Counted from the stretch's first letter, positions 1-64,000 are shown. The stretch: DNA of 64,000 nt from a virus (IMGVR_UViG_3300049893_000899:31356-95355), one strand, 5' to 3'. Notes: generated by a model from the letters alone, not told the origin. Numbers and translations are program-made.

Positions 1-1
1 A

Positions 2-301
2 GGAGATCTTAGAGTTGTTTTACAGCAATTATGCTTCTCTTGTGGTTTATCTCCAGAAGTTTTAAATATGATTGACCTTGAGGTTAGTAGATCTAATCAG
101 TCAAAGTTGTTTAAGGATTCAGATGAAGTTCTTGAAGGAAAATTAACTTACGAGAAAGAAGGGGTAGGTTGCTTTGTTGAACAGACTTCTGACAATTCTT
201 TTGTGTTAAAGAGAAATTCAGACAACAAAGTTTTAAAGAATAAAGCTAGTTTCTTTAAGCCTAGCTTTGATTTTTTAAGAACAATTATTAATTTTAAGTA
301 A
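2..301 (+). CDS. Hypothetical protein, 5'-truncated by window edge
   Basis: The frame of ORF 68..301 is open back to position 2 (GDLRVVLQQLCFSCGLSPEVLNM...). Confidence 0.6.
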   Translation, partial: GDLRVVLQQLCFSCGLSPEVLNMIDLEVSRSNQSKLFKDSDEVLEGKLTYEKEGVGCFVEQTSDNSFVLKRNSDNKVLKNKASFFKPSFDFLRTIINFK

Positions 302-320
302 TTATTTAAACAAGATAGAT

Positions 321-491
321 ATGACATCACAAGAATTATTTGCAGAAATCAATGTTCTTTTTGAACAGCTTCAAAATGAAACAACTAAAAAGAGTAAAGC
401 ATCAAAACTTAGAGCAAGAACTAAGTCAGTACAACTAAGCAAGATGCTTAAAGAATTTAGAGCTTTATCTCGCAAAGAAAGTAAACAATAA
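321..491 (+). CDS. Histone H1-like (Hc1-family) small basic DNA-binding protein, 56 aa; missed by the ORF track
   Basis: Translated by hand: MTSQELFAEINVLFEQLQNETTKKSKASKLRARTKSVQLSKMLKEFRALSRKESKQ. The KA..RAR..S..L.K.LKEFR..S pattern resembles Bacteroidota Hc1 proteins. A terminator follows. Confidence 0.75.
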   Translation: MTSQELFAEINVLFEQLQNETTKKSKASKLRARTKSVQLSKMLKEFRALSRKESKQ

Positions 492-497
492 AAAAAC

Positions 498-528
498 AAA
501 AAGGTTATCGAGAGGTAGCCTTTTTTTT
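498..528 (+). terminator. Rho-independent terminator
   Basis: AGGTTATC-GAGA-GGTAGCCT stem (two G-U pairs, GNRA loop) followed by a T run. Confidence 0.75.
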
Positions 529-539
529 ACTTATCAACT

Positions 540-1202
540 ATGAAACCAACAGAAAAATTATTAGGCTATTATTGGGCTGAAGAGCTCAACGATGTTTTAT
601 TGTCTGAAGAAATGAAGACAACATCAAGATATATCTCTGGAAGAAGAAACTTTGCAAGTGTACTTCCGGAACAACAAGAAGTATTCTCTTTATTCAAAAG
701 ACTTCAGCTAAAGAACATTAGAATTGTATTTATATCTGAAGCTCCAACAAGCACAAAGTCAGCAGCTTCAGGCATAGGATATGCTTCTTTAGATCCGTTT
801 GAAACATATCCTGAAAACAAAGCTTTAATCAATCATATTGAAAAGAACTTCAAAGATGGCATGTGGTTAACTCCAGATAGAGATTTAAAGGATTTAGTTG
901 CTAATGGAATATTCTTCTTAAACCAAGACTTAACTTGCGAAGAAGATAACAGAACGGCTCATAAAGGACTATGGGAATCCTTTACTTCATCTGTTTTGAA
1001 GCTTATTGCTAAAGAAGAAAGACCTATATGCTTTATCCTTTGGGGCCAATCAAATATAGAGTTCTTTGACAAAAATACTAAAGGGTTAGATTTGTCTATT
1101 CACAAAGTGTTTAAGAAAGAAGATATCAAAGAAGAGTCCACTTGCTTAAAAGAAGCTTGCGATTTTGTTGAGAGTTATTACAAACAAAAATTAATAGTAT
1201 AA
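540..1202 (+). CDS. Uracil-DNA glycosylase (family 1 UNG)-like protein with degenerate catalytic motifs
   Basis: IRIVFISEAP~VKVVILGQDP; GIFFLNQDLT~GVLLLNTVLT; AHKGLWESFT~SH..GWE.FT; FILWG~FLLWG. GQDPY and HPSP motifs are absent. Confidence 0.75.
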   Translation: MKPTEKLLGYYWAEELNDVLLSEEMKTTSRYISGRRNFASVLPEQQEVFSLFKRLQLKNIRIVFISEAPTSTKSAASGIGYASLDPFETYPENKALINHIEKNFKDGMWLTPDRDLKDLVANGIFFLNQDLTCEEDNRTAHKGLWESFTSSVLKLIAKEERPICFILWGQSNIEFFDKNTKGLDLSIHKVFKKEDIKEESTCLKEACDFVESYYKQKLIV

Positions 1203-1778
1203 ATGAGTAAGGAAAAGACTAAATTAGCAATGATACATCCATTTGATAGTAGTAAATCAATGACTGTACTTCATCTACTCCAATCTGAAATATGGTTGAA
1301 GCACATGATAGATCAGATTGAATATCAAACAAAAAAGTTTGGATGGAAGCAGAACAAAGAGTTCATGAACAAGACCAAGAACGCTTTGCAATCTATTAGG
1401 TTTTATAATCATTCAATCAGAGTTGACTACAATGATGATGAAATGTATGAGGTTACAGCAAAAGTGTCAGATCAAATCTGCAAAGTAGTAAACCTTTCAT
1501 CAGAAGACAGAGCTAAAGTTTATGAACTCATTGAAGAGCTTACAGGAACGCAAAGTAAGTTCACTACAGACCACACAGAACTAATCAAAGAGTATCTTGG
1601 AAAACTAGACGAAGCAAGAGTTAAGTATTCAAAGATAATAAAACAAGAATGCGTTGGAGCTGTTGTACTTGGAGGTGAGTTCCCTACTGTTGAAGATGCT
1701 ATCAATGCACATAACATATTAGCTAGGCTAAATGTTACATATCAGTATCCAGTTAATTTGATTAGTGAAATTAAATAA
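1203..1778 (+). CDS. Hypothetical protein
   Basis: 191-aa ORF abutting the upstream stop codon. Confidence 0.7.
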   Translation: MSKEKTKLAMIHPFDSSKSMTVLHLLQSEIWLKHMIDQIEYQTKKFGWKQNKEFMNKTKNALQSIRFYNHSIRVDYNDDEMYEVTAKVSDQICKVVNLSSEDRAKVYELIEELTGTQSKFTTDHTELIKEYLGKLDEARVKYSKIIKQECVGAVVLGGEFPTVEDAINAHNILARLNVTYQYPVNLISEIK

Positions 1779-1788
1779 GGCGGAAATT

Positions 1789-1995
1789 ATGAATTACCAA
1801 CAGCAATTAAATTCAATACACAGTTATCTTATGTATAAGAAATTCCCTTATCATAGTTTATCTGTGATACACAGACACCAAGATTTAGGTTTTCACGTTT
1901 TCTTTTCGGATGATGTAAAGGAAATGGTAACTGATGAAATTAAAGAGCATTTAGCTGCTTATGCGTTTCATTGGTCTTTCGTTAAAAGCAATTAA
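1789..1995 (+). CDS. Hypothetical protein
   Basis: ATG at 1789 preferred over the GTG at 1765, which overlaps the upstream gene. Confidence 0.6.
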   Translation: MNYQQQLNSIHSYLMYKKFPYHSLSVIHRHQDLGFHVFFSDDVKEMVTDEIKEHLAAYAFHWSFVKSN

Positions 1996-2013
1996 TATTT
2001 AAAACTATGGCAA

Positions 2014-2134
2014 GACTAACGGTTTGCAGATTGGCGTTGTTGCCACACAAATGTTTAATTGAAACACTAAATTTAATAATATGGAAAATGATAATTTGAA
2101 AACGGAAAGCAATAACGCCAATGTGCTGTTAGCT
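2014..2134. mobile_element. attC-like recombination site 1
   Basis: TAAC(2017)-GGTTT-GCAGATTGGCGTTGTTGC(2026-2043)...GCAATAACGCCAATGTGC(2109-2126)-T-GTTA(2128); arms 16/18 complementary. Confidence 0.7.
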
Positions 2135-2299
2135 GCTGTGCCTGATTGTAAAGATATGGATTACGATAAGGTAAGGGCTATCGGCAAGGAAAAGTATTGT
2201 ATAAAAGGAATAAGCTGTAATTTCTGCGACTTCATGGATAGAGATAGAGGTAAAATAAATAGTTGCGTTCAGGAGTATGTCAAAAGGCATTGCATCTAA
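2081..2299 (+). CDS. Cassette-borne hypothetical Cys-rich protein
   Basis: ATG lies in the loop of site 1; stop codon lies in the TAAC of site 2. Confidence 0.65.
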   Translation: MENDNLKTESNNANVLLAAVPDCKDMDYDKVRAIGKEKYCIKGISCNFCDFMDRDRGKINSCVQEYVKRHCI

Positions 2300-2424
2300 C
2301 GTTTTGCAGCTAACCGAAGTTGGCGATTACGAAGCACAAAAATTCAAATTAAATAAATGTTAAACCGAAGCACAACAGCTCATTTCAGCACTACACCGCC
2401 AATCTTGGTTAGGTGCTGTTATAT
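2294..2424. mobile_element. attC-like recombination site 2
   Basis: TAAC(2297)-GTTTT-GCAGCTAACCGAAGTTGGCG(2306-2325)...CGCCAATCTTGGTTAGGTGC(2397-2416)-T-GTTA(2418); arms 16/20 complementary. Confidence 0.7.
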
Positions 2425-2450
2425 GCTGTGCTTCTCAAATCTTAATTAAA

Positions 2451-2651
2451 ATGACAAAAGGAACTTTTCAAAAAACAGTAGAAAGTGCAGAATACGATTT
2501 TGTTCGTGATAAAGCACAAAGAGAAACGATTGAATTACTTGCTAAGACTTTGATTGAAGTTAGAAAGCACATGACCGCACACATTCCTGAAAAGGTATTT
2601 GATATGGTTGATGATGCACTTTCTAAGTCGGGTTTTCAGCATAGCATATAA
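2451..2651 (+). CDS. Cassette-borne hypothetical protein
   Basis: 66-aa ORF ending in TAAC; bounded by a 14/15-bp inverted repeat (2418-2432 / 2638-2652). Confidence 0.65.
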   Translation: MTKGTFQKTVESAEYDFVRDKAQRETIELLAKTLIEVRKHMTAHIPEKVFDMVDDALSKSGFQHSI

Positions 2652-2670
2652 CTACAATATATACGCAGTT
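2649..2670. repeat. Array-terminal (attI-like) module, copy 1
   Basis: TAACTACAATATATACGCAGTT; 21/22 identical to 5999-6020. Confidence 0.65.
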
Positions 2671-2692
2671 AAACAAATAAACAATTAAGAAA

Positions 2693-3139
2693 ATGAAAGA
2701 AAAAATAAAAGGCTTTTCCGACCCTAGGCTGGTCGGTAGAGAGGTGTATGTTAGGGATGTGAAGATGGTTATTAGTAAAATAAATGATAGCCACACAATG
2801 TGTATAAAAAAAGAGTACGGTATTAATCGTTCATTTCTTCATGATGGAAGGCATACTTCGATTGATTTACTACCTATTTTATCCTTCACACCATACACCG
2901 TAGAAATAAATGAAAACGGTCAAGTAACAATCAAAGGCTACTCGGATGAAATTGAATTAGAATCAGAGGACAAGCCGAAAGAGGGTGATTGTGGTTGGTT
3001 TTGGGATTCTGAATATTGTCGTTATTTTAGGTATGGTACGATTGCAAGAATAAGCTCTGCTTACTATATTGGTACTGCTCCTTACAAAAACTTCTCAAAA
3101 ACATGCCCTGAGTGGATTAAAGAAATTGTAAATAAGTAA
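2693..3139 (+). CDS. Hypothetical protein
   Basis: 148-aa ORF with A-rich leader. Confidence 0.7.
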   Translation: MKEKIKGFSDPRLVGREVYVRDVKMVISKINDSHTMCIKKEYGINRSFLHDGRHTSIDLLPILSFTPYTVEINENGQVTIKGYSDEIELESEDKPKEGDCGWFWDSEYCRYFRYGTIARISSAYYIGTAPYKNFSKTCPEWIKEIVNK

Positions 3140-3142
3140 AAT

Positions 3143-3415
3143 ATGGAAAAAATAAGCGTAAAAGATAATAAAGTTATTTTAACCGTAACGCCACAAGAAA
3201 CTAATAAGTTCTTAGAAAAGGGTACTATTATTTCATGGAATGAAAGTATTAATTTCCTCGAAAACTATAAATCTGATGAAATAGTAGATGTTGTTGATAG
3301 TAATAGTAAAATTGACTTAGAAGCATCTAAAATGCTAAAAAGAATATCTGAGCTAAATATAGAAAAAGAATTGTTAATTAATAAACTATTAGAAACATGC
3401 AAGGAAGAAAAATAA
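3143..3415 (+). CDS. Hypothetical protein
   Basis: 90-aa ORF in a tightly packed run. Confidence 0.6.
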   Translation: MEKISVKDNKVILTVTPQETNKFLEKGTIISWNESINFLENYKSDEIVDVVDSNSKIDLEASKMLKRISELNIEKELLINKLLETCKEEK

Positions 3416-3861
3416 AACACAAAGAAACTGGAGAGGTTTTTATATTCTTACAGTTTGAGGCTTCATCTAAGACTTTAGACGACAACAAACAAGTAGTATC
3501 ATTAGCTGTTATAGTAGAAGATAAAAACGGAAATATTTGTATTTTCTCAGCTAATGATGTGCAATTCGTAAAAGAAGAGCCTATCAAAACAGAAACAACA
3601 GGAATAGACATGATGAAGCATAAAGCGGAATCAATGCCGACCTTACAAAATAGCATTGAAGTGTGGGCGTGTATGGATAGAAGTGGATTTGTTAATATTG
3701 CAGCAAAAAAGAATTTCTATAAAAATAATGAAATTTGGAGCTCTCACGATGAGTTGTTTATGTCAACTAACATAGAAGACTTCATACAAGCATTCCAAGG
3801 CTTATCTTGGAACGATGAAGGACCTAAGAAGTTTAGAATTAGTGTAGAGCCTTTGGGGTAA
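3397..3861 (+). CDS. Hypothetical protein
   Basis: 154-aa ORF overlapping the upstream gene end. Confidence 0.65.
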   Translation: MQGRKIKHKETGEVFIFLQFEASSKTLDDNKQVVSLAVIVEDKNGNICIFSANDVQFVKEEPIKTETTGIDMMKHKAESMPTLQNSIEVWACMDRSGFVNIAAKKNFYKNNEIWSSHDELFMSTNIEDFIQAFQGLSWNDEGPKKFRISVEPLG

Positions 3862-3898
3862 CGAATAAAAGCCGTTTTATTATGGAAAAAACATCATT

Positions 3899-4093
3899 AT
3901 GTTGTTAAAATTATTAAAGAGATTATTCAAATCTAAAACAAAATCAAAAAAAGATTCTAAAACAAAATCAAAAGAAGATGTTTTTATTCTTAGAAAATAT
4001 TGTAGTGGTTGTGATTCTATTCAAGTGCATCACGATAGCCCTTTTGAAGAGCCATTTTGTTATAGATGTTATAATAGACAACATGGGTATTAA
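3899..4093 (+). CDS. Small basic protein with CxxC...CxxC (possible Zn ribbon)
   Basis: CSGC and CYRC motifs; internal 24-bp tandem duplication at 3932-3979. Confidence 0.55.
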   Translation: MLLKLLKRLFKSKTKSKKDSKTKSKEDVFILRKYCSGCDSIQVHHDSPFEEPFCYRCYNRQHGY

Positions 4094-4126
4094 AAAATAA
4101 AAGCCGTTTTACTTAGTAGGACGGTA

Positions 4127-4351
4127 ATGTTAAATTTAAAAGATAAGATTATGGACAACCTAAAATTGACGACACCATTTGTTCCACAGGAACAAAACAC
4201 TATCTTTATTATGCAAGATAATGGCACAAGAGAAATTCTAAAGCTTTGTGGAAACGGAGATATTTTCGTAAAAGGCAGATTAGCAGAAAATGACAAAGAA
4301 GTAGTTGATGCTTTAAGAGAGTTTCTCAAAGGGCAAGGCTTATTAAAATAG
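4127..4351 (+). CDS. Hypothetical protein
   Basis: 74-aa ORF between repeat copies. Confidence 0.65.
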   Translation: MLNLKDKIMDNLKLTTPFVPQEQNTIFIMQDNGTREILKLCGNGDIFVKGRLAENDKEVVDALREFLKGQGLLK

Positions 4352-4408
4352 CCGATAACAAATAAAAGCCGTTTTACTCGGTTTGTAGTAACTTTAAAAT
4401 GAAATAAA

Positions 4409-4684
4409 ATGAGCAACACAACATTAAATTTAAACAGCGTGGGTACAACTACAAGCGTCAGTCTTTGGTCAACACCTGAAAGAGTAGATGTAATTGAAAA
4501 CTCTGATAGTATCGAGTTCGTGTATAAAGAAACTTCAATGATTTCCTACACATCAATTCCAGCACCACCACCACAAGTAAGAGTTTTCAAAATCGTCTTT
4601 TCTTGTGTAGATGGCAAGTGGAATAAATCGGAAAGAATTTATGGTCAAATTGTTCCTGCTGAAAATGAACGATACGTTTTTTAG
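4409..4684 (+). CDS. Hypothetical protein
   Basis: 91-aa ORF between repeat copies, followed by a divergent attI-like module at 4694-4714. Confidence 0.7.
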   Translation: MSNTTLNLNSVGTTTSVSLWSTPERVDVIENSDSIEFVYKETSMISYTSIPAPPPQVRVFKIVFSCVDGKWNKSERIYGQIVPAENERYVF

Positions 4685-4751
4685 CATTGCCTATAACTAT
4701 CAGATATGTGCAACAAACAAATAAAAGCCGTCTTACTAAACGATTAAGAAA

Positions 4752-5243
4752 ATGGAAAAAGTATTAGAAAAATTCACTATTGATGATGTGGAGGTTGGTG
4801 ATGTTTTTCTTCATAAACACAATAAATCAAGATTTACTGTTTCAGAAAAACATAAAGATAAAGGTTATATTCTTTTAAAAAGTTATGGAGCACTTTGGGC
4901 TTTAAGTTTTTACTATTTCGATCTAATTAAAAAAAGTAATAAAACTGAAACACAAACAGAGGAACAATTAATAGAACAACAGCCAACCTCAATAAAATCC
5001 GTCTTATCAGGTATTGACAAGCTTCTAGAATACAAAGAAAGTAAGTATGGCAATGCACTAAACAACGATCGTTTAAAAGTGTTTTCTGGTAAATGCAAAT
5101 TTGGAGATATACTTGACGCAAAACTAAACAGAGTAGCCAACGGAGAAGAGCTACTAAAGAACGATGTTGTAGATATAGCAGGCTATCTAATCCTAACACT
5201 AAGAGAAAAAGGATGGGATGATTTTAGTGAGTTTATGGACTGA
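4752..5243 (+). CDS. Protein with C-terminal DUF1599/Nmad1-like (all-alpha nucleotide pyrophosphatase-like) domain
   Basis: LLEYKESKYGNA...DAKLNRV...DVVDIAGYLIL pattern. Confidence 0.6.
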   Translation: MEKVLEKFTIDDVEVGDVFLHKHNKSRFTVSEKHKDKGYILLKSYGALWALSFYYFDLIKKSNKTETQTEEQLIEQQPTSIKSVLSGIDKLLEYKESKYGNALNNDRLKVFSGKCKFGDILDAKLNRVANGEELLKNDVVDIAGYLILTLREKGWDDFSEFMD

Positions 5244-5639
5244 AAATAAGGCTTAAATTTATGAGATATGACTGAAAAAGAATTGTTAATTGAGTTGTGT
5301 AATAATCTTGAAAAAGAACTCAATCAAAGAGATGGAAAGAAAACGCATAAAGTACAATTACAAAGCGGATTAAAGCCTGAAAACTATTTCGTTCCAATGA
5401 TGAGCATAGGAATAACAAGAAAATCGTATAATGGTGTTAGTATGGCTTGGTTTGTTGAAGTGTGGGTTGATGGAAAATGTATATTCAGAGAATCACATGT
5501 GCCACACAAAACAGAAAAGCTTGAAATAGTTGAAGGATTTTTGATTAAAAGGGTTTTCAGACACATCTTCACATTTGGAGTTATGTCAAGTAAAAAAACC
5601 ATTGATGAACTTGTGTGAATTATGGACTGAAAATAAGGC
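5233..5639 (+). repeat. Perfect 20-bp direct repeat TTATGGACTGAAAATAAGGC flanking ORF 5268..5618
   Basis: Copies at 5233-5252 and 5620-5639. Confidence 0.9.
5268..5618 (+). CDS. Hypothetical protein (apparently inserted gene)
   Basis: 116-aa ORF between 20-bp direct repeats. Confidence 0.7.
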   Translation: MTEKELLIELCNNLEKELNQRDGKKTHKVQLQSGLKPENYFVPMMSIGITRKSYNGVSMAWFVEVWVDGKCIFRESHVPHKTEKLEIVEGFLIKRVFRHIFTFGVMSSKKTIDELV

Positions 5640-5641
5640 GG

Positions 5642-5774
5642 CAATAACGGTTTGAAGCTATGCTTAGTTGCGGACTTAAATAACAAAATTTTTAATTAAC
5701 AACAAAATATAATAAAATGGAAAAAGTATCAGATTACAACGGAACTCCGCAATTAGGCATAGCTGCAGTTAGCA
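5642..5774. mobile_element. attC-like recombination site 3
   Basis: TAAC(5645)-GGTTT-GAAGCTATGCTTAGTTGCGGA(5654-5674)...TCCGCAATTAGGCATAGCTGC(5746-5766)-A-GTTA(5768); arms 18/21 complementary. Confidence 0.7.
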
Positions 5775-6001
5775 GCCGTTTTAATTTCGGACAAGAGGTG
5801 TGGTTCTTAAATGGACGACACATTATGAATGGTAAGATAGAAGCTGTTAGAGGGCAGAAACATTGCCTATACGAACACACCGACATTGAATTGGAAGTTT
5901 ACCATACAAGCGGTGAAATAGGGTGTAAGTTTTGGGTAAAAGATGAAGATTGTTTTGAAAGCAGACAAGCGTTGATAGATGCGGTCTTAAATGGCTGCTA
6001 A
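5717..6001 (+). CDS. Cassette-borne hypothetical protein (possible SH3-like beta barrel)
   Basis: ATG in the loop of site 3; FNFGQEVWFL...GKIEAV; ends in GGCTGCTAAC, complementary to GTTAGCAGCC at 5768. Confidence 0.7.
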   Translation: MEKVSDYNGTPQLGIAAVSSRFNFGQEVWFLNGRHIMNGKIEAVRGQKHCLYEHTDIELEVYHTSGEIGCKFWVKDEDCFESRQALIDAVLNGC

Positions 6002-6020
6002 CTATAATATATACGCAGTT
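5999..6020. repeat. Array-terminal (attI-like) module, copy 2
   Basis: TAACTATAATATATACGCAGTT. Confidence 0.65.
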
Positions 6021-6070
6021 CAAACTAAATAAGGCGGCAATAACTGCCGTCTTACTAAAAATAAATTATC

Positions 6071-6457
6071 ATGAGCGAATTTAGAATAGATTACTTTGAA
6101 CTTATGTTCTTAGCAGAATCAGTATCACCAAAAGGACCTATTGCACGGTCAATGTGCTTTGATAGCTTCTCTGATAAGCACTACCACCACATGAATGAGG
6201 GACAACGATTGCAGTTCTTTAATTACGTGCAAAAGCAACCTTACTTTACACTAGAAGACGAGCAATGCAGGCACTTTTACGCAAGATTTAATCCACAGAA
6301 TCAATACAAAGTTTCTTGCTTCTACGATGGAAAGGCACAAACAGTAGATTGCTATAGATTTGAAGACGAGTATAGGGTATCTAGGAATAGATTTATAAAT
6401 AGTGACTACATTAAAAGTATCGTTAGGGTTTACGATGGAGTGGTTATCAAGCAATAA
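6071..6457 (+). CDS. Hypothetical protein
   Basis: 128-aa ORF between repeat copies; its stop codon lies inside the repeat. Confidence 0.7.
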   Translation: MSEFRIDYFELMFLAESVSPKGPIARSMCFDSFSDKHYHHMNEGQRLQFFNYVQKQPYFTLEDEQCRHFYARFNPQNQYKVSCFYDGKAQTVDCYRFEDEYRVSRNRFINSDYIKSIVRVYDGVVIKQ

Positions 6458-6497
6458 GGCGGCAATAATTGATGTCTTACTTAAATAATATTAATCT

Positions 6498-6986
6498 ATG
6501 GCAAATATTTGTGATGTATACGTTGAGTTCTACAACGTGAAAGATGAACAAAAACATCTTATTACTGAAGAAAACTTCAAGAATGAAGAAATCAAAACAA
6601 ACAACGACGGTTGGGTTGATATAGAGTTTGTTAATGAAGGACTAAACACGTTATCTATGTCCTCAGCGTGGTCAGCTCCTATTTCTTGGTTTGAAGGTTT
6701 TTGCGCTGAACATGGCTTAGATGGAAGAATGTATTTCTATGAGCCTGGATGTTGTTATCATGGATATGCTGACGTTACAGATGGCCACATTCAAACAACA
6801 TACTATGATAATAATTTTGAATATCTTTACCTACATAATAACGAAGGCTTCTGGGATGAAGTAAATTATTTCTTAGAAGAAGATATGCTAGAAGAAGAAG
6901 AATGGAATGAAAGAGTTCTTAAGTATATTTCTCTTGAAGATAAGAAAACATTAATTGAAATGATTGAAAAACAAAAAAAGGGATAA
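6498..6986 (+). CDS. YubB/DUF1281-like ferredoxin-fold protein
   Basis: SAWSAP..WF...YFYEPGC.Y.G motif. Confidence 0.55.
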   Translation: MANICDVYVEFYNVKDEQKHLITEENFKNEEIKTNNDGWVDIEFVNEGLNTLSMSSAWSAPISWFEGFCAEHGLDGRMYFYEPGCCYHGYADVTDGHIQTTYYDNNFEYLYLHNNEGFWDEVNYFLEEDMLEEEEWNERVLKYISLEDKKTLIEMIEKQKKG

Positions 6987-7008
6987 CTTCGGTTATCCCT
7001 TTTTTTTT
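6973..7008. terminator. Bidirectional Rho-independent terminator at the convergence of the accessory and virion modules
   Basis: A7-GGGATAAC-TTCG-GTTATCCC-T9. Confidence 0.9.
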
Positions 7009-7024
7009 ACAAGACCAACGCTTA

Positions 7025-8158
7025 TTATAAAGCTTTAATCCAAAGTGTAGCTGATAATGATTTAGGTGATATACCAACAGGTTGTTGAGTATAGTTCCCT
7101 TGAAATCCAGTTTCACCATTTATAGTATGGTCATGATTACCTGCATTCTTAGTCATTGTTGCTGAAGTAGCAGTTGAAGGACCCCCTAATGACCAAGATT
7201 CAATACTAGCACCTGTTTGATTGGTATCAGCATTTCCATATCGAAACCCTTGATGGTTATGATCCCCACTTATACCAATCTCTATATTAGCTCCATTTGC
7301 ATCAACAGAGTGTTTATGTAAAGGTAATTGATTACCAGCTAACATAACAGTATCAGACCCATCTAAAGTGCCTATTGATCCAGTATTGTATCTTAAGAAT
7401 CTATCTGAGGCATTTGGCAAGTTAAACGTAGTAGTTCCATCTCCAGCCCCATAAGTAGCTCCAATAACAGCAAACAAAGCTGAATAAGTGGTTCTTGAAA
7501 CAGCAGCACCATCAGCTTTAAGAAATTTACTATTTGGAGCAATTGAACCAGAGTAACTTAAATATGTTCCAACAGGAAGGAATTCAGTTATATCAATCGT
7601 TCCGCCAGACACAGTTCCTAAAGCCTCTTCAACAGCAGTAACTCTAGTGTTTAAATCTTGTATCTGATTTAATATGTCTACAATAATGTTTTGAATATTA
7701 TTCAAAGAGTTTCTTAACCAAGTTGTAAAGCTTGTAGTTAATTTAACATTAAATATGTTTCTTTTGTCGCTATTCTCAGAAACAGTATCTATTGAAACAT
7801 CAACATTAAACCCAGAATAGTCTACAACATAATCTTGAGAATCAAATACCAAGTCATCTCCCTCTACATTTGTTACTTGAGGTAATTGATGTGGCTGAAC
7901 GAAAATAATTCTTTCATATACTTTATCAAGATAACTCTTAGCATTAGTATTGGTTGCAGCAATGCCTAATCCAGATAGTTCTTCTAACTTCTTAGTAGAA
8001 TCATACTCTTTAGCTAAGTCGTTTACTTCTGTCTTGAAAGTAACAGAATCAACTAACTCTCTAAACGTTGTCTCGTCAGGTCTATCACCATTCAAGAATC
8101 TATTGCCTCTTTTTGTGGCCTTCTTTGTAACTTCAAAGAAATAACTTTTTAACTTCAT
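7025..8158 (-). CDS. Phage tail-collar domain fibre protein
   Basis: LPVGTYLSYSGSIAPNSKFLKADGAAVSRTTYSALFAVIGATYGAGDGTTTFNLP; downstream HxH motifs; coiled coil upstream. Confidence 0.9.
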   Translation of the reverse strand: MKLKSYFFEVTKKATKRGNRFLNGDRPDETTFRELVDSVTFKTEVNDLAKEYDSTKKLEELSGLGIAATNTNAKSYLDKVYERIIFVQPHQLPQVTNVEGDDLVFDSQDYVVDYSGFNVDVSIDTVSENSDKRNIFNVKLTTSFTTWLRNSLNNIQNIIVDILNQIQDLNTRVTAVEEALGTVSGGTIDITEFLPVGTYLSYSGSIAPNSKFLKADGAAVSRTTYSALFAVIGATYGAGDGTTTFNLPNASDRFLRYNTGSIGTLDGSDTVMLAGNQLPLHKHSVDANGANIEIGISGDHNHQGFRYGNADTNQTGASIESWSLGGPSTATSATMTKNAGNHDHTINGETGFQGNYTQQPVGISPKSLSATLWIKAL

Positions 8159-59023: not shown

Positions 59024-61474
59024 TTATTTTTTTCTAGCAGCTTCAGCATTAGTCTTGTTCTTAAGAGCAGTCTTAGCTTTAAGCTTCTCTATCTCCATCT
59101 TATTCTCCATCTCCTCTCGCTTAAGCTCTCTATCCTTCTCTTTCTCCTTCTCATTAGAAGTTCTATCCTTCTCTCTCTGTTGAGCTTCACTCGTCTGTCT
59201 TGACTTCTCGATAGCTTTATTACCCCATTCAATAACATCAGGGATATTATTCATATTTCTATCTTTCTCTTCATCAAAACCAGAAGCAACAATAGTAGCT
59301 TTAAGAATATCATTCTCTCTATCAAGTTGATTCTCCATAGCCTCAAACTCTCTAGCCTCTCTCTTATCTTGTAATTGAGCCTGAACAGCTTGATCTCTTG
59401 ATTCTCTTTCAGCTTGAGCTTGTTGAGCTTGACTCTGTTCAAGTCTAACCTCTCCATTCTCAATATATTCAATACCTTCAATAAGAGAAGCAGATCTGTA
59501 TAATTTAGCCAAGTCAGAAAGATTAACCTTACCCTGTTGTAAAGCAGCTTCTGCCAATGCTTCAATGCGCATTTTATTTCTCTTATCTTTAGAGTAGTTA
59601 GAGATAAACACTCCAATATCAGAATCCATTAACATCTCTCCGTCAACAAGTAAAGATTGTACTGTATTGTCTTTCGACATATAAGTGAATCTTTTCCCTC
59701 CAGCAGTAGTAAACTTAGACATCTCAATATAAGCTGTTAATACAGCTTGTTTAATCTCGTCATGTCTAAAGAAGTAATGCTCAGTAATATAGCCTGAATT
59801 AATTAAAGCTGTATTAAGACCAGTAGTAGTTTCATATTGAGAAGTGGAGCCAAGTTGTTGTGGGTTCATTCCGCACACTTGGTCCATCAGGAACTCAATC
59901 TTAGCCATAATACCAATATACTGTTGTACTACGTTAGCTAAAGACAAGTCTATACTCTGGAACTGATTAAACCTAGAAACAGAGTTAGGATCTCCATCTC
60001 TACCTTCTTCCATTGAGTTAATCCAAGCAATACCAAGGTTATCAAAGTAGTACATCCATTGCTTCATGTCTATACCGTTTGATTTAGGTATCTGAGCCAA
60101 GTCAAACACCATCTTCTTACCTTTTGCTTTAGCTATCTCATTTTCAAGTCTTAACCAGATAGTATTATACAACATCTGATACGGAGCAAGTAAATCAACT
60201 ATACTTGTCGCTTCAGAGTTTAAGTTATTATACAATCCACCAATATAAGGAGACCACACCTCTGTAGGGCTGTCAATCTTTCTCATTTGGTTTCTACAAG
60301 GATTAATGTCAACATAGATGTCAGCGCCAATCTTATGTCCCATCCAATATTCTGGCAACCATTGCCACTCTAAAGTAGCCCCAATAGCTTTAAGCTCTTC
60401 TGTTAGCTTGAATGAATCATCTACGTCTTCCGTCATTGGCATCCCAGATTCAGGATCAACATACGAAAGATATCCAATCTTCTTCATTGACTTCCACACA
60501 CAAGTAACAACTCTAATGTTTCCATTGTATCGTTGATTTACATTGTATGTATCTAAATCCTTCATTGTAGCCGCATCATACGCGAATCCAGGGTACATGA
60601 TATTGTTACTCATTGAGTTAACAATCTCCCCATCATCAAGCATCTTCAGTTGAGCTTCAGTAAGGTATAATCCAAATTCATCTATAACTTCCCCTCTTGA
60701 CATGAAGCGTTCCTCTCTCTGCCAATCAGATAAGTGAACCCATTCAGTCTCAGGCCCTTTTTCAAACTCAAAGTTTAATGGGTTTACAACCCTTAAAGAC
60801 GTCCTTCCATTTACCGCCCCAACATAATAAACCTCTTCTGAAGCTATTGCGGCATGGCTGAATCCTTTGTTAAACTTAGCCGGCAATCTATCTGAGTGCA
60901 TTGCATCTTCAACTATCACTGAAGCGTAATGTTCTCTGATGTCTCTAATTGTTCTGCCGGTGTTCATTTGTTTCTTAAGCTCCTTGAAAGAAAGGATTGA
61001 ATCCATCTTTTGCTCAATCTCTGGATCATTTGGATCAAGCTGAAAAATAGCCATTAACTTCTGCTGTGTAGTCATTAACAACTCTTGTGTCTGTTGTTCT
61101 ACCTTAGAGTTAACAACGTGGCCACCAACTCCAACAACATGGTAATCAAACGGTCGCTCTAACTCTTCCCCAACCAATCTATCAACCCTAATCCTTACTA
61201 AGTTATAGTCTCTAAGCTTAGAAGGAGAACCTCCAAACTGTCCGCCAAACTTAAAAGGGTCTGTCACATACTTATAATTCTCCTCATTTATTCTGGAGTT
61301 CATTAAGTCATAGTTAGCCTGTTTGCTTTGCTTAGATGAACGACCATTCCTCTTCAAAGAGAAAGCCATACCATCAACAGCATCAACACATTGCTCTCTC
61401 CATTTGTCAGTCTTCTTTGACAAAGGAAGCATCTGTTGAGGTAAATACCTCTGGATATTAATGTCTGTACTCAT
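59024..61474 (-). CDS. Portal protein
   Basis: 816 aa; LP.Q.LP..KK..KW, L.GEE..RPF, VVNP, S.VD.L.PYQ..YN; follows the terminase. Confidence 0.9.
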   Translation of the reverse strand: MSTDINIQRYLPQQMLPLSKKTDKWREQCVDAVDGMAFSLKRNGRSSKQSKQANYDLMNSRINEENYKYVTDPFKFGGQFGGSPSKLRDYNLVRIRVDRLVGEELERPFDYHVVGVGGHVVNSKVEQQTQELLMTTQQKLMAIFQLDPNDPEIEQKMDSILSFKELKKQMNTGRTIRDIREHYASVIVEDAMHSDRLPAKFNKGFSHAAIASEEVYYVGAVNGRTSLRVVNPLNFEFEKGPETEWVHLSDWQREERFMSRGEVIDEFGLYLTEAQLKMLDDGEIVNSMSNNIMYPGFAYDAATMKDLDTYNVNQRYNGNIRVVTCVWKSMKKIGYLSYVDPESGMPMTEDVDDSFKLTEELKAIGATLEWQWLPEYWMGHKIGADIYVDINPCRNQMRKIDSPTEVWSPYIGGLYNNLNSEATSIVDLLAPYQMLYNTIWLRLENEIAKAKGKKMVFDLAQIPKSNGIDMKQWMYYFDNLGIAWINSMEEGRDGDPNSVSRFNQFQSIDLSLANVVQQYIGIMAKIEFLMDQVCGMNPQQLGSTSQYETTTGLNTALINSGYITEHYFFRHDEIKQAVLTAYIEMSKFTTAGGKRFTYMSKDNTVQSLLVDGEMLMDSDIGVFISNYSKDKRNKMRIEALAEAALQQGKVNLSDLAKLYRSASLIEGIEYIENGEVRLEQSQAQQAQAERESRDQAVQAQLQDKREAREFEAMENQLDRENDILKATIVASGFDEEKDRNMNNIPDVIEWGNKAIEKSRQTSEAQQREKDRTSNEKEKEKDRELKREEMENKMEIEKLKAKTALKNKTNAEAARKK

Positions 61475-63676
61475 TTATTCAAATAGTTTTTCTTCAAGAA
61501 AGAAATCCTTTCTAATCTTTTTACCCGAACCTTCCTCTATCTTTATGTAATGATGTTGGAGTCTATTGCATATAAGTAATAAGAACGCTATTACACGGTC
61601 AAAGTTACCTGTCTTATTATACGATATCAACTCCTTCAACAAACCAGCAGAGAATATCTTGTTTACTCCAAGAACACCAGCTTCATCTTCTTCATTAAGC
61701 CAGTCCCTCGCGTAAATCTCAAGCTCCTCCTTAATCTTGTTTGTCATATGTATGCCGTAATCCCTATCTACATTACTCTTTTCTGTAGCCTTAAGAAATG
61801 TAGGCATTTTTGCTAACAAATGTAACGATTTTTTTTGCTTAAAGTGAAACTTCATTGAATTTTTCTCATTCTCGTACAGATTGGTAGCGTTATAATAAGC
61901 ACACAATCTCCTAACATTCTCATGGTGTTCTTCTGCCCTATCAGGTCTTGCAGTGTATTCAGCAACAATAAACTCCCTCGCGCTGCCGTGTCTAAAGTCG
62001 CCAATCTTATAGATAAAAGTAGATCCTAACGAAACTGAGTTAGGAGCCTTGTCTTGGTCATAGGGGTCTGTCGCTGCAATATACATACCATAAGGAATCT
62101 CTCCAGGTGCCGGGTGTTCCCATATCTGTACTGAACCAGTGGTATCATCTGTAGATTTCATTGGAAACCCACAAGCTCTTTTCTTGTTATGTAAATCCGG
62201 AGACCACTTAACGCCATACGTAGCATTAGGATCCGAAACTAAATCACCTAGTTGTCCATTTACTTGAGGAATATCGCAGTTTTCTACAAACTTCAACTGA
62301 TCAATTAAGTCTGCAATAGGGAATATGTTACCTCCGGATATTAAGAAAGCTTCAGAAGGCACAATAGGGTTGTTTTGTAGTTCATTATTCAACGGTTCTT
62401 TACTTGAACCTGAAGCCAACTTGTCCCTCTTGCTGTCAATATATTTCATTGCCTGTTCCTTCTTAGTGAACAGGTTATTGTCTTTGAAGTCATTCAAGCC
62501 TTTATAGTAAGGCAAGAAGTAACCTATCTTCTTTGCTGAGCCTTCAAAAGCATCAGAAAATCCTAAACAGTCAAACTGCTCAGGGTTATAGAATATCTCT
62601 TTAAGCTGTTCTGTAGCTCCAGAGATCATTTCACCACCGGTACCAAAAACCCATATAACTCCAAATTTAGAAGAGGAGTTCATGGTATTCTCTTTCAAGG
62701 CACCCATGGCATCAATAAGGTTAGACATAAAACCTGCCTCTTCAATAAAGACTAAGTTGTTACGCAAACCGTTACCTGCTGTAGCCTTCTCTTGGAATGT
62801 TCTATGTGATATCATAGAACCACTACCCTTCACCTTACCAGTCTTCAAGTCTTTAACACTTGCCAACATATCCTTACCAGGCATCAATGACCCTGAAGTT
62901 TCATGCTGGAAAGGAGCCATATAGTACATATCCCCCTCTTCAAAAGAACCATATAGGTTATTATACCCATCAAGGAACTTATCAAGCAAACCCTTGCTAT
63001 ACTTAGCATCAAACGCTCCAACAAGAGAAGAACTTCGTAAAGGCTCCCCTGCTTTTTTAGCATCTACATACTGTTCATATCCTTCAGCTCCATCTGTAAT
63101 AAAGTTATGACATAACAAAGCCGCAGCAAAGAAAGACTTACCAGTACCCCTGGCCTCAAGGTCAACAACATTCTTAGCTTCGTTCTTATATAAAGGAATA
63201 CCACTTAGATTGTGGCTATCCCAAAGATAACTCAACGCGTCTACATACTCCTTAAAAGAACCATCTTCTTTAAACACTGTAACATCAAGGAAGTGAAACC
63301 TATAGTCTTCTTTTATAGCTTCAAAGTCTCCATTATACTCTTCGTTAAGTTCTTTTACAAGCCTAACACAGGTCTTTTCTTTATCATCACTGAAGCCAGA
63401 AAAGCCTTTAGCTACAAGATAGATATAGGCTTTCTCCCATTCATTATCTCGTAGCCAAGGCCTTCCTAATATCTCCTGTTTAGAAAACCTATCTTTCTTA
63501 ACCTTAATCTTGAAGTGGTTAACATAGAAGTAAAGAACCCCAGGGCAATAATACCCTCCAGCCCACATACCATCAAAGACTCTTCTCTTCTCGTCCTTCC
63601 AGTATATCTTGTACTCCATACTTTTAGGATGAAAGATTGGAGCCTCGTTGAAAGTATATAAACTAGGATTTCTCAT
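61475..63676 (-). CDS. terL: Terminase large subunit
   Basis: Walker A ARGTGKS, Walker B VFIEEAG, FGTGG, nuclease DPYD and NFDRV. Confidence 0.92.
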   Translation of the reverse strand: MRNPSLYTFNEAPIFHPKSMEYKIYWKDEKRRVFDGMWAGGYYCPGVLYFYVNHFKIKVKKDRFSKQEILGRPWLRDNEWEKAYIYLVAKGFSGFSDDKEKTCVRLVKELNEEYNGDFEAIKEDYRFHFLDVTVFKEDGSFKEYVDALSYLWDSHNLSGIPLYKNEAKNVVDLEARGTGKSFFAAALLCHNFITDGAEGYEQYVDAKKAGEPLRSSSLVGAFDAKYSKGLLDKFLDGYNNLYGSFEEGDMYYMAPFQHETSGSLMPGKDMLASVKDLKTGKVKGSGSMISHRTFQEKATAGNGLRNNLVFIEEAGFMSNLIDAMGALKENTMNSSSKFGVIWVFGTGGEMISGATEQLKEIFYNPEQFDCLGFSDAFEGSAKKIGYFLPYYKGLNDFKDNNLFTKKEQAMKYIDSKRDKLASGSSKEPLNNELQNNPIVPSEAFLISGGNIFPIADLIDQLKFVENCDIPQVNGQLGDLVSDPNATYGVKWSPDLHNKKRACGFPMKSTDDTTGSVQIWEHPAPGEIPYGMYIAATDPYDQDKAPNSVSLGSTFIYKIGDFRHGSAREFIVAEYTARPDRAEEHHENVRRLCAYYNATNLYENEKNSMKFHFKQKKSLHLLAKMPTFLKATEKSNVDRDYGIHMTNKIKEELEIYARDWLNEEDEAGVLGVNKIFSAGLLKELISYNKTGNFDRVIAFLLLICNRLQHHYIKIEEGSGKKIRKDFFLEEKLFE

Positions 63677-64000
63677 TCGCTTCTCTCTCTCTTCTTTCTT
63701 CTAAACTACCATAACTAAGTCTACATAAAGCAGTGAAGTCCATTTTGTCCCTCTCTTCTTCTGATAACTTATAAAACTCAGGTCTAGCGTGCTTAACACG
63801 CCTTCTTAATGTCCACACTCCAAGGCCAGGTAATATTATACTCTTAACCTCTGGATCGTCCATCATCTTAGTTATCAAGTCAAACTGAGCCATAAACACT
63901 AAGTCTATATCCTCCGGCTTTAACTTAGTACCATCAGCACTAACTCCACCAAGTCTCTCAATAACTCTCTTATAAATTTTTAATCTTTGCTGTGTTAACA
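63663..64000 (-). CDS. HU/IHF-like small protein, 5'-truncated by window edge
   Basis: Frame is open from 63899 to the edge (LTQQRLKIYKRVIERLGG...); ILPGLGVWT resembles the HU I.LPGFG.F motif. Confidence 0.5.
   Translation of the reverse strand, partial: LTQQRLKIYKRVIERLGGVSADGTKLKPEDIDLVFMAQFDLITKMMDDPEVKSIILPGLGVWTLRRRVKHARPEFYKLSEEERDKMDFTALCRLSYGSLEERREREANEKS

Follow-up and report, generated by a model that had tools for sequence, protein, structure and literature searches.

Hairpins of a probable integron-like cassette system in Bacteroidota and their phages, likely recombination sites, appear to supply the starts of phage cassette genes

The viral DNA analysed here, a stretch of 64,000 nucleotides from a 95-kb record (hereafter the window), contains three hairpins of about 140 nt, each at the position assigned to it in a preliminary description of the sequence. 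They are accompanied by short genes and by a second type of motif, as follows:

2003-2143, + strand: site 1, attC-like hairpin; left core TAACGGTTTGCAG at 2017-2029, arms at 2026-2043 and 2109-2126, 65-nt loop at 2044-2108, right core GTGCTGTTA at 2123-2131 with GTTA at 2128-2131
2081-2299, + strand: cassette gene 1, 72 aa, Cys-rich; ATG 2081 in the site-1 loop
2285-2433, + strand: site 2, attC-like hairpin; left core TAACGTTTTGCAG at 2297-2309, right core GTGCTGTTA at 2413-2421 with GTTA at 2418-2421
2357-2449, + strand: site-2 loop ORF, 30 codons; ATG 2357 in the loop, right arm read in the frame TGC TGT TAT
2451-2651, + strand: cassette gene 2, 66 aa; stop TAA at 2649-2651 is the TAA of an attI-like TAAC
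2649-2672, + strand: attI-like motif TAAC-TACAATATATACGCAGTT, direct repeat family D3, putative close of a two-cassette mini-array
4694-4715, + strand: weaker attI-like motif TAAC-TATCAGATATGTGCAAC, compared by eye, repeat families D3 and D8
5633-5783, + strand: site 3, attC-like hairpin; left core TAACGGTTTGAAG at 5645-5657, arms at 5653-5677 and 5743-5767, 65-nt loop, right core CTGCAGTTA at 5763-5771 with GTTA at 5768-5771
5717-6001, + strand: cassette gene 3, 94 aa, no known family; ATG 5717 in the site-3 loop
5999-6023, + strand: attI-like motif TAAC-TATAATATATACGCAGTT, repeat family D3, putative close of a one-cassette mini-array

The three hairpins exceed chance. Under a covariance model sites 1, 2 and 3 score 87.7 bits (E = 4e-18), 125.4 bits (E = 5e-27) and 103.5 bits (E = 8e-22), and as RNA they fold at -38.2 (z = -3.35), -42.4 (z = -3.39) and -43.4 kcal/mol (z = -5.56), respectively; sites 1 and 3 also correspond to inverted repeats I9 and I1. 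The same model finds no fourth copy in the 95-kb record. Copies of site 1 with 97-98% identity occur in L019, L075 and L097 with unrelated flanks, and the arm differences between site 2 and its copy in L019 are compensatory changes.

These sites belong to a large family. The pattern TAACGKTTTGMAG-N85-115-TGCWGTTA, run on viral contigs and Bacteroidota genome contigs, matched at least 120 of each and yielded at least 240 exact-core copies, in which TAAC and GTTA are invariant because the pattern demanded both; element length among the matches listed peaks at 125-127 nt. Of the 24 pairs in the consensus fold (RNAalifold), 15 show compensatory changes. Taken over 90 family members, pairing holds in 96% of cells and covariation scores 0.544; shuffles score 0.125 (0/500 reach the observed value) and slid controls 0.06-0.10. 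Only the cores, of 13 and 9 nt, are conserved; the stems vary and covary, and since the arms covary instead of remaining conserved, selection appears to act on structure rather than homology. In the stem a 4-nt bulge (GKTT), on one side only, follows TAAC, and a G.G mismatch, an A.C mismatch and two G.T wobbles occupy fixed positions; the positions flanking the cores (K, S and N after GTTA; M before TAAC) depart from RRRY/RYYY. On the sense strand, G.U wobbles exceed A.C mismatches by 9:1, a ratio that marks one folding strand and is identical in bacterial copies.

Bacterial copies of the site stand in arrays. Among sampled genomes of Sphingobacteriales, 26/61 carry it, in arrays that hold at least 11 copies per 23 kb. 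At least 19 copies are present in Pedobacter glucosidilyticus, where one array proceeds from Maf to a tyrosine recombinase and then to six or seven units of an ORF plus a site, each site lying 7-10 nt 3' of the ORF stop. An orthologous recombinase (40-51% identity) is found at the predicted array end in four of five further genomes, and phage contigs such as L097 combine the site, a cassette, an attI-like motif and a 275-aa recombinase orthologue with 39% identity. The nearest solved structure to the array recombinase is archaeal XerA. The array recombinase aligns with VchIntIA at residues 18-188 and 247-319, with just 14 residues between in place of the 58-residue IntI-specific insert of VchIntIA, and it scores 191 bits against TIGR02249 (cut-off 265), that is, under the NCBIfam integron integrase cut-offs. 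Identity with classical IntI is rejected on both of these grounds. We infer that the system is served by this compact Xer-like tyrosine recombinase, rather than a classical IntI, and that the enzyme acts on these sites.

The orientation of the site differs between hosts and phages. Among the matches listed, bacterial copies are antisense to their genes (77 vs 2) and viral copies are co-oriented with theirs. With the bacterial cassette gene on the other strand, the site comes after the stop codon, as in integrons. This bears on the proposal in the preliminary description that the sites are unlike classical attC sites, which lie downstream of the gene; the site in fact occupies the same end of the cassette as in bacterial arrays, and what differs is that the phage gene is inverted.

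What moves with the site can be read from pairs of copies that are at least 90% identical. Although the pair counts defining the cassette unit are small, seven pairs have only the downstream flank in common and none only the upstream flank, and in the six of these seven pairs that were aligned the similarity starts exactly at TAAC. Because common cassettes start at TAAC, the site travels with its downstream gene, and the crossover would probably lie within TAAC itself. The majority of highly similar pairs (368) have both flanks unrelated, which is consistent with the shared attC types of chromosomal integrons and would also suit a site that moves by itself. The left core also meets the gene before it, the upstream ORF ending in its TAA in 36/96 viral copies among the matches listed.

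A candidate counterpart of attI is the motif TAAC-TAYWATATAT. It adjoins the recombinase gene in five or six phage contigs, in L043, L064, L070, L097 and L110 at a distance of 40-60 nt upstream of a gene for an Xer-like recombinase, and it also adjoins the Pedobacter recombinase. The motif copies at 2649, 4694 and 5999 may close the mini-arrays of the window; the weaker one, at 4694, follows the stop of an ORF at 4409-4684 by 12 nt. A search for a tyrosine recombinase gave no PF00589 match anywhere in the 95-kb record of this phage, so that exchange would need an enzyme supplied in trans, from the host or a co-infecting phage. Clusters of attC sites without an integrase (CALINs) have been reported in phage genomes by Qi et al. 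2023 (PMC9892861). With 280 nt between sites 1 and 2, another 3.3 kb to site 3 and no PF00589 match in the whole record, the three sites come under the CALIN definition only if accepted as attC-type.

The central proposal of the preliminary description was that the loops double as translation-start modules and that the right arm is protein-coding, and the sequence supports it. ATG 2081 and ATG 5717 lie in the hairpin loops, and their ORFs cross the right arm and GTTA to give the N-termini ...NNANVLLAAV and ...PQLGIAAVSSRF. Codons 1-17 of cassette gene 1 and about 19 codons of cassette gene 3 are encoded by sites 1 and 3, respectively, and the stops of these genes are likewise part of other elements: TAA 2297-2299 is that of the site-2 left core and TAA 5999-6001 that of an attI-like TAAC. 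Searches of Pfam and PHROG placed neither cassette gene 1 nor cassette gene 2 in a family. Across the loop and arm there is typically one open frame. Among the matches listed, a loop ATG has a frame open to the end of the element in 93/107 viral and 49/118 bacterial copies, and it opens an ORF of at least 50 codons in 82/111 phage copies (74%) vs 10/118 bacterial copies (8%); in that 74% of viral copies the frame, with its ATG, is that of the downstream gene. Where the frame is GTG CTG TTA, as used by site 1, the GTG of the core is an in-frame alternative start that still lies within the site.

It had also been suggested that cargo homologues be compared for N-termini that track with the site. 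They do so: leaders follow the site and not the protein family. The site-1 leader is joined to at least nine unrelated proteins, and the family of the site-1 cargo has eight different leaders, its body being retained from AAVPDxKD. One stretch of loop, arm and core encodes a complete lipoprotein signal peptide (MKTKT..FAFAYVLLVAVIFCGC), which precedes at least three unrelated mature parts. For both window genes (genes 1 and 3), homologues rule out a start downstream of GTTA. In those of gene 1, M26 is replaced by Ile in 2/11, whereas P21 and K24, upstream of it, never vary; in those of gene 3, a leader of about 20 aa is present in 8/8, with S20, F22 and Q26 invariant upstream of GTG-28, the sole other candidate start. 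The hairpin precedes the gene 3 homologues in L248 and L249, and in L250 it has been lost (the left arm is gone) with leader and ATG kept. Elsewhere in the family, the C5-methylase motif I and the Lar CPFCG motifs start 3-6 residues past the core with no intervening start codon, the interval from core to conserved motif in L108 and L011 being of this kind.

Site 2 is arranged differently. As described previously, its loop ATG 2357 opens a 30-aa ORF whose stop (2447-2449) is separated by 1 nt from ATG 2451. ORFs of this type (M.NRS....T.PPLL..CCY...) end -1 to +5 nt from the next ATG in about nine other copies of the subfamily. The 40 nt following the core are conserved up to the cargo ATG. With this juxtaposition of stop and start recurring in about ten relatives, translational coupling from the site-2 ORF to ATG 2451 is plausible.

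In our judgement these hairpins are probably attC-like sites of an integron-like cassette system shared by Bacteroidota and their phages, in which the phage loops supply the starts of genes. The family would belong to a widespread, scarcely described, integron-like gene-swapping system of these bacteria and their phages. The IntI insertion is missing and the RYYYAAC/GTTRRRY consensus is unmatched beyond AAC/GTT, so that 'integron-like' rests on analogy and context and not on membership. A cassette would open at the TAAC of a left core, take in the hairpin and the following gene and end at the next TAAC, whether of another site or of an attI-like motif. In phages the cassette gene is inverted, by which the site becomes the 5' end of the gene, and the phage copies appear adapted to this position, with an A-rich 65-nt loop containing an ATG and a frame open through the right arm and GTTA core. 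A loop ATG with a frame open through arm and core means that the site can supply a translation start and a leader, predicted to be about 17-22 residues long and largely unconstrained in sequence, and the loop ATG would be the codon actually used. The TAA of the next site frequently donates the stop, and at site 2, where the loop ATG opens a short ORF ending at the cargo ATG, ribosomes may be handed on by coupling.

The reading that competes most directly with this one treats the loop ORFs as hitch-hiking extensions, with true initiation at or after the right core (the GTG in GTGCTGTTA, ATG 2156, GTG 5798) and the loop ATGs being used little or never. In-frame alternatives do exist (the core GTG where the site-1 frame is used, ATG codon 26 in gene 1 and GTG codon 28 in gene 3), there is hardly any constraint on the leaders as peptides, since third codon positions show just a slight rise in entropy, and known domains start directly past the leader, which would make it dispensable for the fold. 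We nevertheless regard this as improbable, given that Ile replaces M26 in homologues that retain the upstream P21 and K24, that S20, F22 and Q26 are invariant before GTG-28, that L108 and L011 offer no start codon between core and conserved motif, that the open loop and arm frame is so much more often the gene's own in viral than in bacterial copies, and that lipoprotein signal peptides require the charged n-region encoded by the loop.

A little less probable again is that the hairpin is chiefly an element of phage mRNA, gating or enhancing translation through an ATG in a closed loop or directing RNase III processing, with its spread secondary. The sites fold well as RNA (-38 to -43 kcal/mol), the ATG lies in an open loop whose 65 nt would accommodate a 30S footprint between the arms, and the sense-strand excess of G.U over A.C would suit such a role; but the same G.G, G.T and A.C positions, 4-nt bulge and 9:1 bias occur in bacterial copies, which are antisense to genes and where this strand is not mRNA, and the L250 homologue keeps leader and ATG after losing the left arm. 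The suggestion in the preliminary description that folding of the mRNA gates translation consequently finds no support. Rfam has no family matching the hairpin, and array context beside a recombinase accounts for the structure without an RNA role. Least likely of all, and by our estimate very unlikely, is that the elements are MITE-like repeats or mobile regulatory cassettes resembling the promoter-early stem-loops (PeSLs) of T4-like phages, with genes shuffled by homologous or illegitimate recombination at the cores and no dedicated recombinase. The missing recombinase of this phage, the 368 near-identical pairs with unrelated flanks and the PeSLs themselves, which are intergenic stem-loops with expression signals bordering variable genes (PMC2839356, PMC4122927), could be cited in its favour. 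Covarying arms, however, point to structural selection, sequence conservation is limited to cores of 13 and 9 nt, long single-gene arrays lie beside orthologous tyrosine recombinases in several bacterial genomes and phage contigs, the boundaries at TAAC are sharp, and no target-site duplication was seen.

Under the attC-like, integron-like reading, near counterparts are the attC sites and cassette arrays of integrons, above all of those sedentary chromosomal integrons whose attC sites are long and uniform (PMC8618304, PMC8876359). Both have an imperfect hairpin of conserved structure and variable arms, invariant AAC...GTT ends and one longer arm; in both, single-gene cassettes form co-oriented arrays beside a tyrosine recombinase, with attI or, here, a candidate attI-like motif at the array end, the better-folding strand (in bacteria) is the bottom strand of the cassette genes, and the site moves with one cassette whose boundary falls within the AAC core. 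They differ in that the recombinase here is Xer/XerA-like and lacks the IntI-specific insert, and in that classical attC has two single extrahelical bases and an unpaired central spacer between R and L boxes, in place of which we find the one-sided 4-nt bulge with fixed G.G, G.T and A.C; the present cores also fail RYYYAAC/GTTRRRY beyond AAC/GTT. The location of attC 3' of the ORF is retained in the bacterial arrays (7-10 nt past the stop) and absent in this phage, and phage cassette genes are, unlike those of integrons, inverted and begin inside the site (74% of viral copies listed). Our literature search found no paper on genes starting inside such recombination hairpins.

The phage CALINs (PMC9892861) are similar in being phage-borne, cassette-like arrays in genomes without an integrase, with DNA methyltransferases as frequent cargo, although their sites were called with classical attC models, and our covariance model finds no copy in Polaribacter phage P12002L, an example from that study. 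The term 'start codon' appears nowhere in PMC9892861, and starts inside the site are thus not discussed there. PeSLs (PMC2839356, PMC4122927) are likewise repeated, carry expression signals and border shuffled accessory genes, but they are non-coding, have a conserved stem around an early promoter that is itself conserved, act by homologous recombination with no associated recombinase and are not known from host chromosomes; membership in that class is rejected, since the stems here vary and covary around 13- and 9-nt conserved cores and the bacterial arrays lie beside a recombinase. The closest analogue of the site-2 ORF (2357-2449) ending at ATG 2451 is found in ORF-11 and ORF-18 of attI1 in class 1 integrons, short ORFs inside a recombination site that have their own initiation region, span the crossover point (Hanau-Bercot et al., reviewed in PMC8876359) and, through translational coupling, supply ribosomes to the cassette gene next to them (PMC8876359). 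These reside in attI rather than attC, occur once per integron and are not fused to the cassette protein, whereas most of the phage sites described here would provide the cargo itself with an in-frame leader and its start codon.

Three attC-like hairpins occupy window positions 2003-2143 (site 1), 2285-2433 (site 2) and 5633-5783 (site 3). They share a left core carrying TAAC and a right core carrying GTTA, between which the sequence of the arms varies from site to site and their pairing is kept. The preliminary description had located start codons within their loops, and direct reading of the window, together with a listing of its open reading frames (ORFs), bears out every coordinate that it gave.

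Features of the three hairpin sites (window positions)
2017, 2297, 5645: left core TAACGKTTTGMAG, common to the three inverted repeats
2131, 2421, 5771 (ends): right core TGCWGTTA, common to the three inverted repeats
2081: ATG in the ~65-nt A-rich loop of site 1, opening a 72-aa ORF through the right arm and GTTA
2357: ATG of site 2, opening a 30-codon ORF with its stop at 2447-2449, 1 nt before the ATG at 2451
5717: ATG in the ~65-nt A-rich loop of site 3, opening a 94-aa ORF through the right arm and GTTA

Folded as RNA, the three sites reach -38 to -43 kcal/mol (z = -3.4 to -5.6) and leave the ATG unpaired in the loop; a covariance model made from the family alignment detects these three copies and no others anywhere in the 95-kb virus record. 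When positions 1-7200 were compared by BLAST with all fetched loci, similarity was confined to the elements, matches beginning at about 2016, 2290 and 5644 and ending just past the right core. Rfam holds no family for the sites, returning sub-threshold plant miRNA-precursor models alone, which suit any long hairpin; megablast and blastn searches of GenBank phages with the region gave no match.

The record itself represents a tailed phage, encoding a major head protein, portal, large terminase and an ORF of 3,728 aa, with its genes in two opposed blocks. Window positions 59238-64000 (genome 90593-95355) repeat genome positions 73-4835 exactly, a 4,763-bp end duplication that includes the whole large-terminase gene and reduces the unique genome to ~90.5 kb; 'linear' is probably the wrong label for what would be a circular or circularly permuted assembly.

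A scan for the exact cores placed the element in more than 120 contigs each from viruses and from Bacteroidota genomes, both counts being lower bounds, and its length is sharply peaked at 125-127 nt (259 hits among the matches listed). RNAalifold recovered 24 pairs from a 90-member alignment, 15 of them with compensatory changes and 96% of cells paired; the covariation score of 0.544 compares with 0.125 for shuffles, none of 500 reaching it, and 0.06-0.10 for slid controls. Several irregularities are fixed: TAAC is followed by a 4-nt bulge on one side only, and the stem keeps one G.G mismatch, one A.C mismatch and two G.T wobbles. Viral and bacterial copies agree in these mismatches and in their preference for G.T over A.C (9:1), so one DNA strand appears to be the folding strand. 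The predicted attC sites of Polaribacter phage P12002L have been recombined by IntI1 (PMC9892861); the covariance model finds zero copies of the present family in that phage, and so the experiment is not transferable to these sites.

A cassette protein whose ORF opens in a loop and reads through the core can be divided into a leader, encoded by the loop, right arm and core of the site, and a body. Judged by their homologues, genes 1 and 3 both start before GTTA, and none of the homologues moves the true start downstream of it. In gene 3 (5717-6001), a leader of ~20 aa ending ..AAVSSRF is present in all eight homologues, and residues S20, F22 and Q26 are invariant; these lie upstream of the sole alternative start, GTG-28, and the only in-frame start upstream of them is the ATG at 5717. 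A hairpin stands in front of the gene 3 homologue in two related loci, L248 and L249, while in a third, L250, the left arm is gone (no model hit, no significant fold) and the leader and ATG are kept. In gene 1 (2081-2299), the body from AAVPDxKD onwards is common to eleven homologues, with P21 and K24 invariant and the internal M26 replaced by Ile in two. Whether leaders track with the site or with the protein family had been put forward as a check in the preliminary description, and the outcome favours the site from both sides: the eleven gene 1 homologues carry eight different leaders of 8-21 residues, and no fewer than nine unrelated bodies follow the site-1 leader, M(ENDNLKT/TKVSNEE).SNNANVLL. 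Pfam and PHROGs searches with ten neighbouring proteins, including the three cargos, returned nothing significant for the cargos.

The copies in bacteria provide a natural control for loop starts. Of 111 viral copies, 82 have a loop ATG whose ORF crosses the right arm and reaches 50 codons or more, against 10 of 118 bacterial ones; a loop ATG with its frame open to the end of the element is present in 93 of 107 against 49 of 118, and the loops contain 49% and 36% A, respectively. Usually only a single frame of the three stays open across loop and arm. The core is translated as GAV(S) (78 copies), NVLL (41) or CCY (9); use of all three frames argues for conservation at the level of nucleic acid, not peptide. 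Protein-level constraint on leaders was considered and set aside, codon-position entropy giving a weak third-position excess only. Known cargo domains start directly after the leader, with C5-methylase motif I running from residue 24 in viral locus L108 and the CPFCG of Lar proteins from residues 24-27, and no ATG, GTG or TTG falls between the core and either motif. One site type specifies an entire lipoprotein signal peptide (MKTKT..FAFAYVLLVAVIFCGC), from the loop through the arm into the core, and it precedes three or more mature parts that are unrelated to one another. Sites of this lipoprotein type occur in viral contigs L017, L021, L043, L067 and L101, where the loop encodes the charged n-region, the right arm and GTTA core encode the hydrophobic core of the signal, and the Cys comes just after. 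At the other end, the stop of the upstream ORF is the TAA of the left core in 36 of the 96 viral copies with such an ORF, and ~30 more of the 96 stop 10-13 nt before it; each of the window's stops at 2297-2299, 2649-2651 and 5999-6001 is the TAA of a TAAC.

Site 2 belongs to a subfamily in which the loop ATG reads the core in the TGC TGT TAT frame, where GTTAT in place of GTTAG avoids a TAG stop. The resulting upstream ORF, of the form M.NRS....T.PPLL..CCY.., ends between -1 and +5 nt from the next ATG in the window and in ~9 other copies, and the 40 nt downstream of the core are conserved up to that ATG. It is reasonable to infer from this arrangement that translation of gene 2 (2451-2651) would be coupled to that of the upstream ORF, which resembles ORF-11 and ORF-18 of attI1, where coupling boosts cassette translation (PMC8876359).

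The preliminary description further suggested that folding of the hairpin in mRNA could gate translation. We found nothing in favour of this: the structural oddities are the same in bacterial copies, where the strand is not sense-transcribed, and the start in L250 survives loss of the hairpin. Three other explanations for the repeats were rejected. An invertible promoter would sit poorly with the conserved asymmetry of the arms and with an orientation to genes that is fixed within phages and within bacteria; hairpins of the IS200/IS605 or REP type have a different architecture, and no HUH transposase lies nearby; and T4 gene-60-style bypass, or an intron, is contradicted by upstream ORFs that stop before or at TAAC.

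The sites are probably recombination sites at the borders of cassettes. Pairs at least 90% identical from different loci have both flanks unrelated in 368 cases and both shared in 12; the downstream flank alone is shared in seven and the upstream flank alone in none. In the six downstream-only pairs that were aligned, similarity starts exactly at TAAC, so that the mobile unit, in phage orientation, would be TAAC, hairpin and downstream gene, up to the next TAAC. Another type of junction is seen between the window and locus L019: a 98%-identical site 1 is followed by a different gene, the change coming right after GTTAGCnGCTG, and site 2 comes next with compensatory changes in its arms. Relatives of the window region at L248:2574-3795 and L249:400-3686 carry denser arrays of 4 and 7 sites, 300-450 nt apart and all sense, where a gene per cassette would have ~60-100 codons.

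Smaller repeats also surround the sites. AAATAAGGCGGCAATAAC occurs at 5631-5648, 6027-6054 and 6453-6470; within the second of these, positions 6032-6050 make up a small hairpin, GGCGGCA-ATAAC-TGCCGTC, and at 5631 its left half continues directly into site 3, the outer stem of which ends GCAGCCGT, so the small hairpin looks like site 3 minus its interior, or vice versa. A perfect 20-nt duplication, TTATGGACTGAAAATAAGGC, lies at 5233-5252 and 5620-5639 on either side of the gene at 5268-5618, its first copy containing the stop codon of the upstream gene. The 18-21 nt repeat AATAAAAGCCGTYTTACT (3864, 4096, 4361, 4720, 4991 and 6039) stands 15-35 nt 5' of the ATGs of six consecutive small genes, and GCCGTTTT is the commonest sequence directly after the right core (GTTA-nnA-GCCGTTTT); these repeats may be remnants of hairpin sites or their targets.

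Viral sites are co-oriented with flanking genes, whereas bacterial sites are antisense to them (77 versus 2). The site is present in 26 of 61 sampled Sphingobacteriales genomes, the densest clusters in that sample holding at least 11 copies per 23 kb. Pedobacter glucosidilyticus has at least 19 copies. One of its arrays follows housekeeping genes (HAD hydrolase, Maf) and comprises a tyrosine recombinase and then six or seven ORF-plus-site units, each site 7-10 nt past the stop of its ORF. A recombinase orthologue (40-51% identity) lies at the predicted array end in four of five further genomes, and some phage contigs encode a 275-aa orthologue (39% identity). By its sequence, the array-associated enzyme is a Xer/XerA-like tyrosine recombinase: its nearest solved relative is archaeal XerA, it falls below the NCBIfam integron-integrase cut-offs, and its alignment to VchIntIA covers residues 18-188 and 247-319, with only 14 residues in place of the 58-residue IntI-specific insert. 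One Sphingobacteriales copy (G057:C2:2198509-2199303), next to an array of at least nine sites, is interrupted by a TAA stop and could be a pseudogene. The window phage has no tyrosine recombinase, and any exchange there would require the enzyme in trans. A candidate attI equivalent is the following motif, which in several phage contigs precedes the gene of the Xer-like recombinase by 40-60 nt and also adjoins the Pedobacter recombinase; the order in viral locus L097 is site, Lar-like cassette, TAAC-TATWATATAT motif, recombinase.

Occurrences of the TAAC-TAYWATATAT(ACGCAGTT) motif
Window 2649-2672, 4694-4715, 5999-6023: closing each mini-array
L097:735-760 and L247:8540-8560: further occurrences

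Our tentative proposal, which as a whole we regard as possible rather than probable, is that the site both moves genes and builds proteins: along with the start codon it would bring an open leader, in some cases a lipoprotein signal peptide, and the next site would provide the stop. The phage site would then have three roles, as crossover site, translation start and coding segment. In a single recombinase reaction a gene would change place and also acquire another N-terminus or cellular address, and one pool of cassettes would serve both phages and Bacteroidota hosts, with the genes oriented in opposite ways in the two. Most cargo across the family is without known family, and the identifiable part consists mostly of anti-restriction functions (DNA methylases and Lar restriction-alleviation proteins), so the system probably bears on the phage-host arms race. 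It also bears on cassette expression in Bacteroidota, where a Shine-Dalgarno sequence is lacking, on how new N-termini, signal peptides included, become attached to unrelated proteins, and on the annotation of such genes, the starts of which lie inside 'repeats'.

Integrons are the textbook gene-capture device. With sites in 26 of 61 Sphingobacteriales genomes and more than 120 viral contigs, the present elements point to a large cassette system that is largely unrecognised; a full-text literature search found no description of it, and integrons are almost absent from Bacteroidetes in IntegronFinder surveys (PMC9024848). If our proposal is true, the phage sites would amount to a prokaryotic, recombinase-driven counterpart of exon shuffling. 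In integrons and in the bacterial arrays alike, the folding strand is the bottom strand of the cassette genes; the array design, combined with a recombinase lacking the IntI insert, indicates a system that is integron-like in design and not a classical integron.
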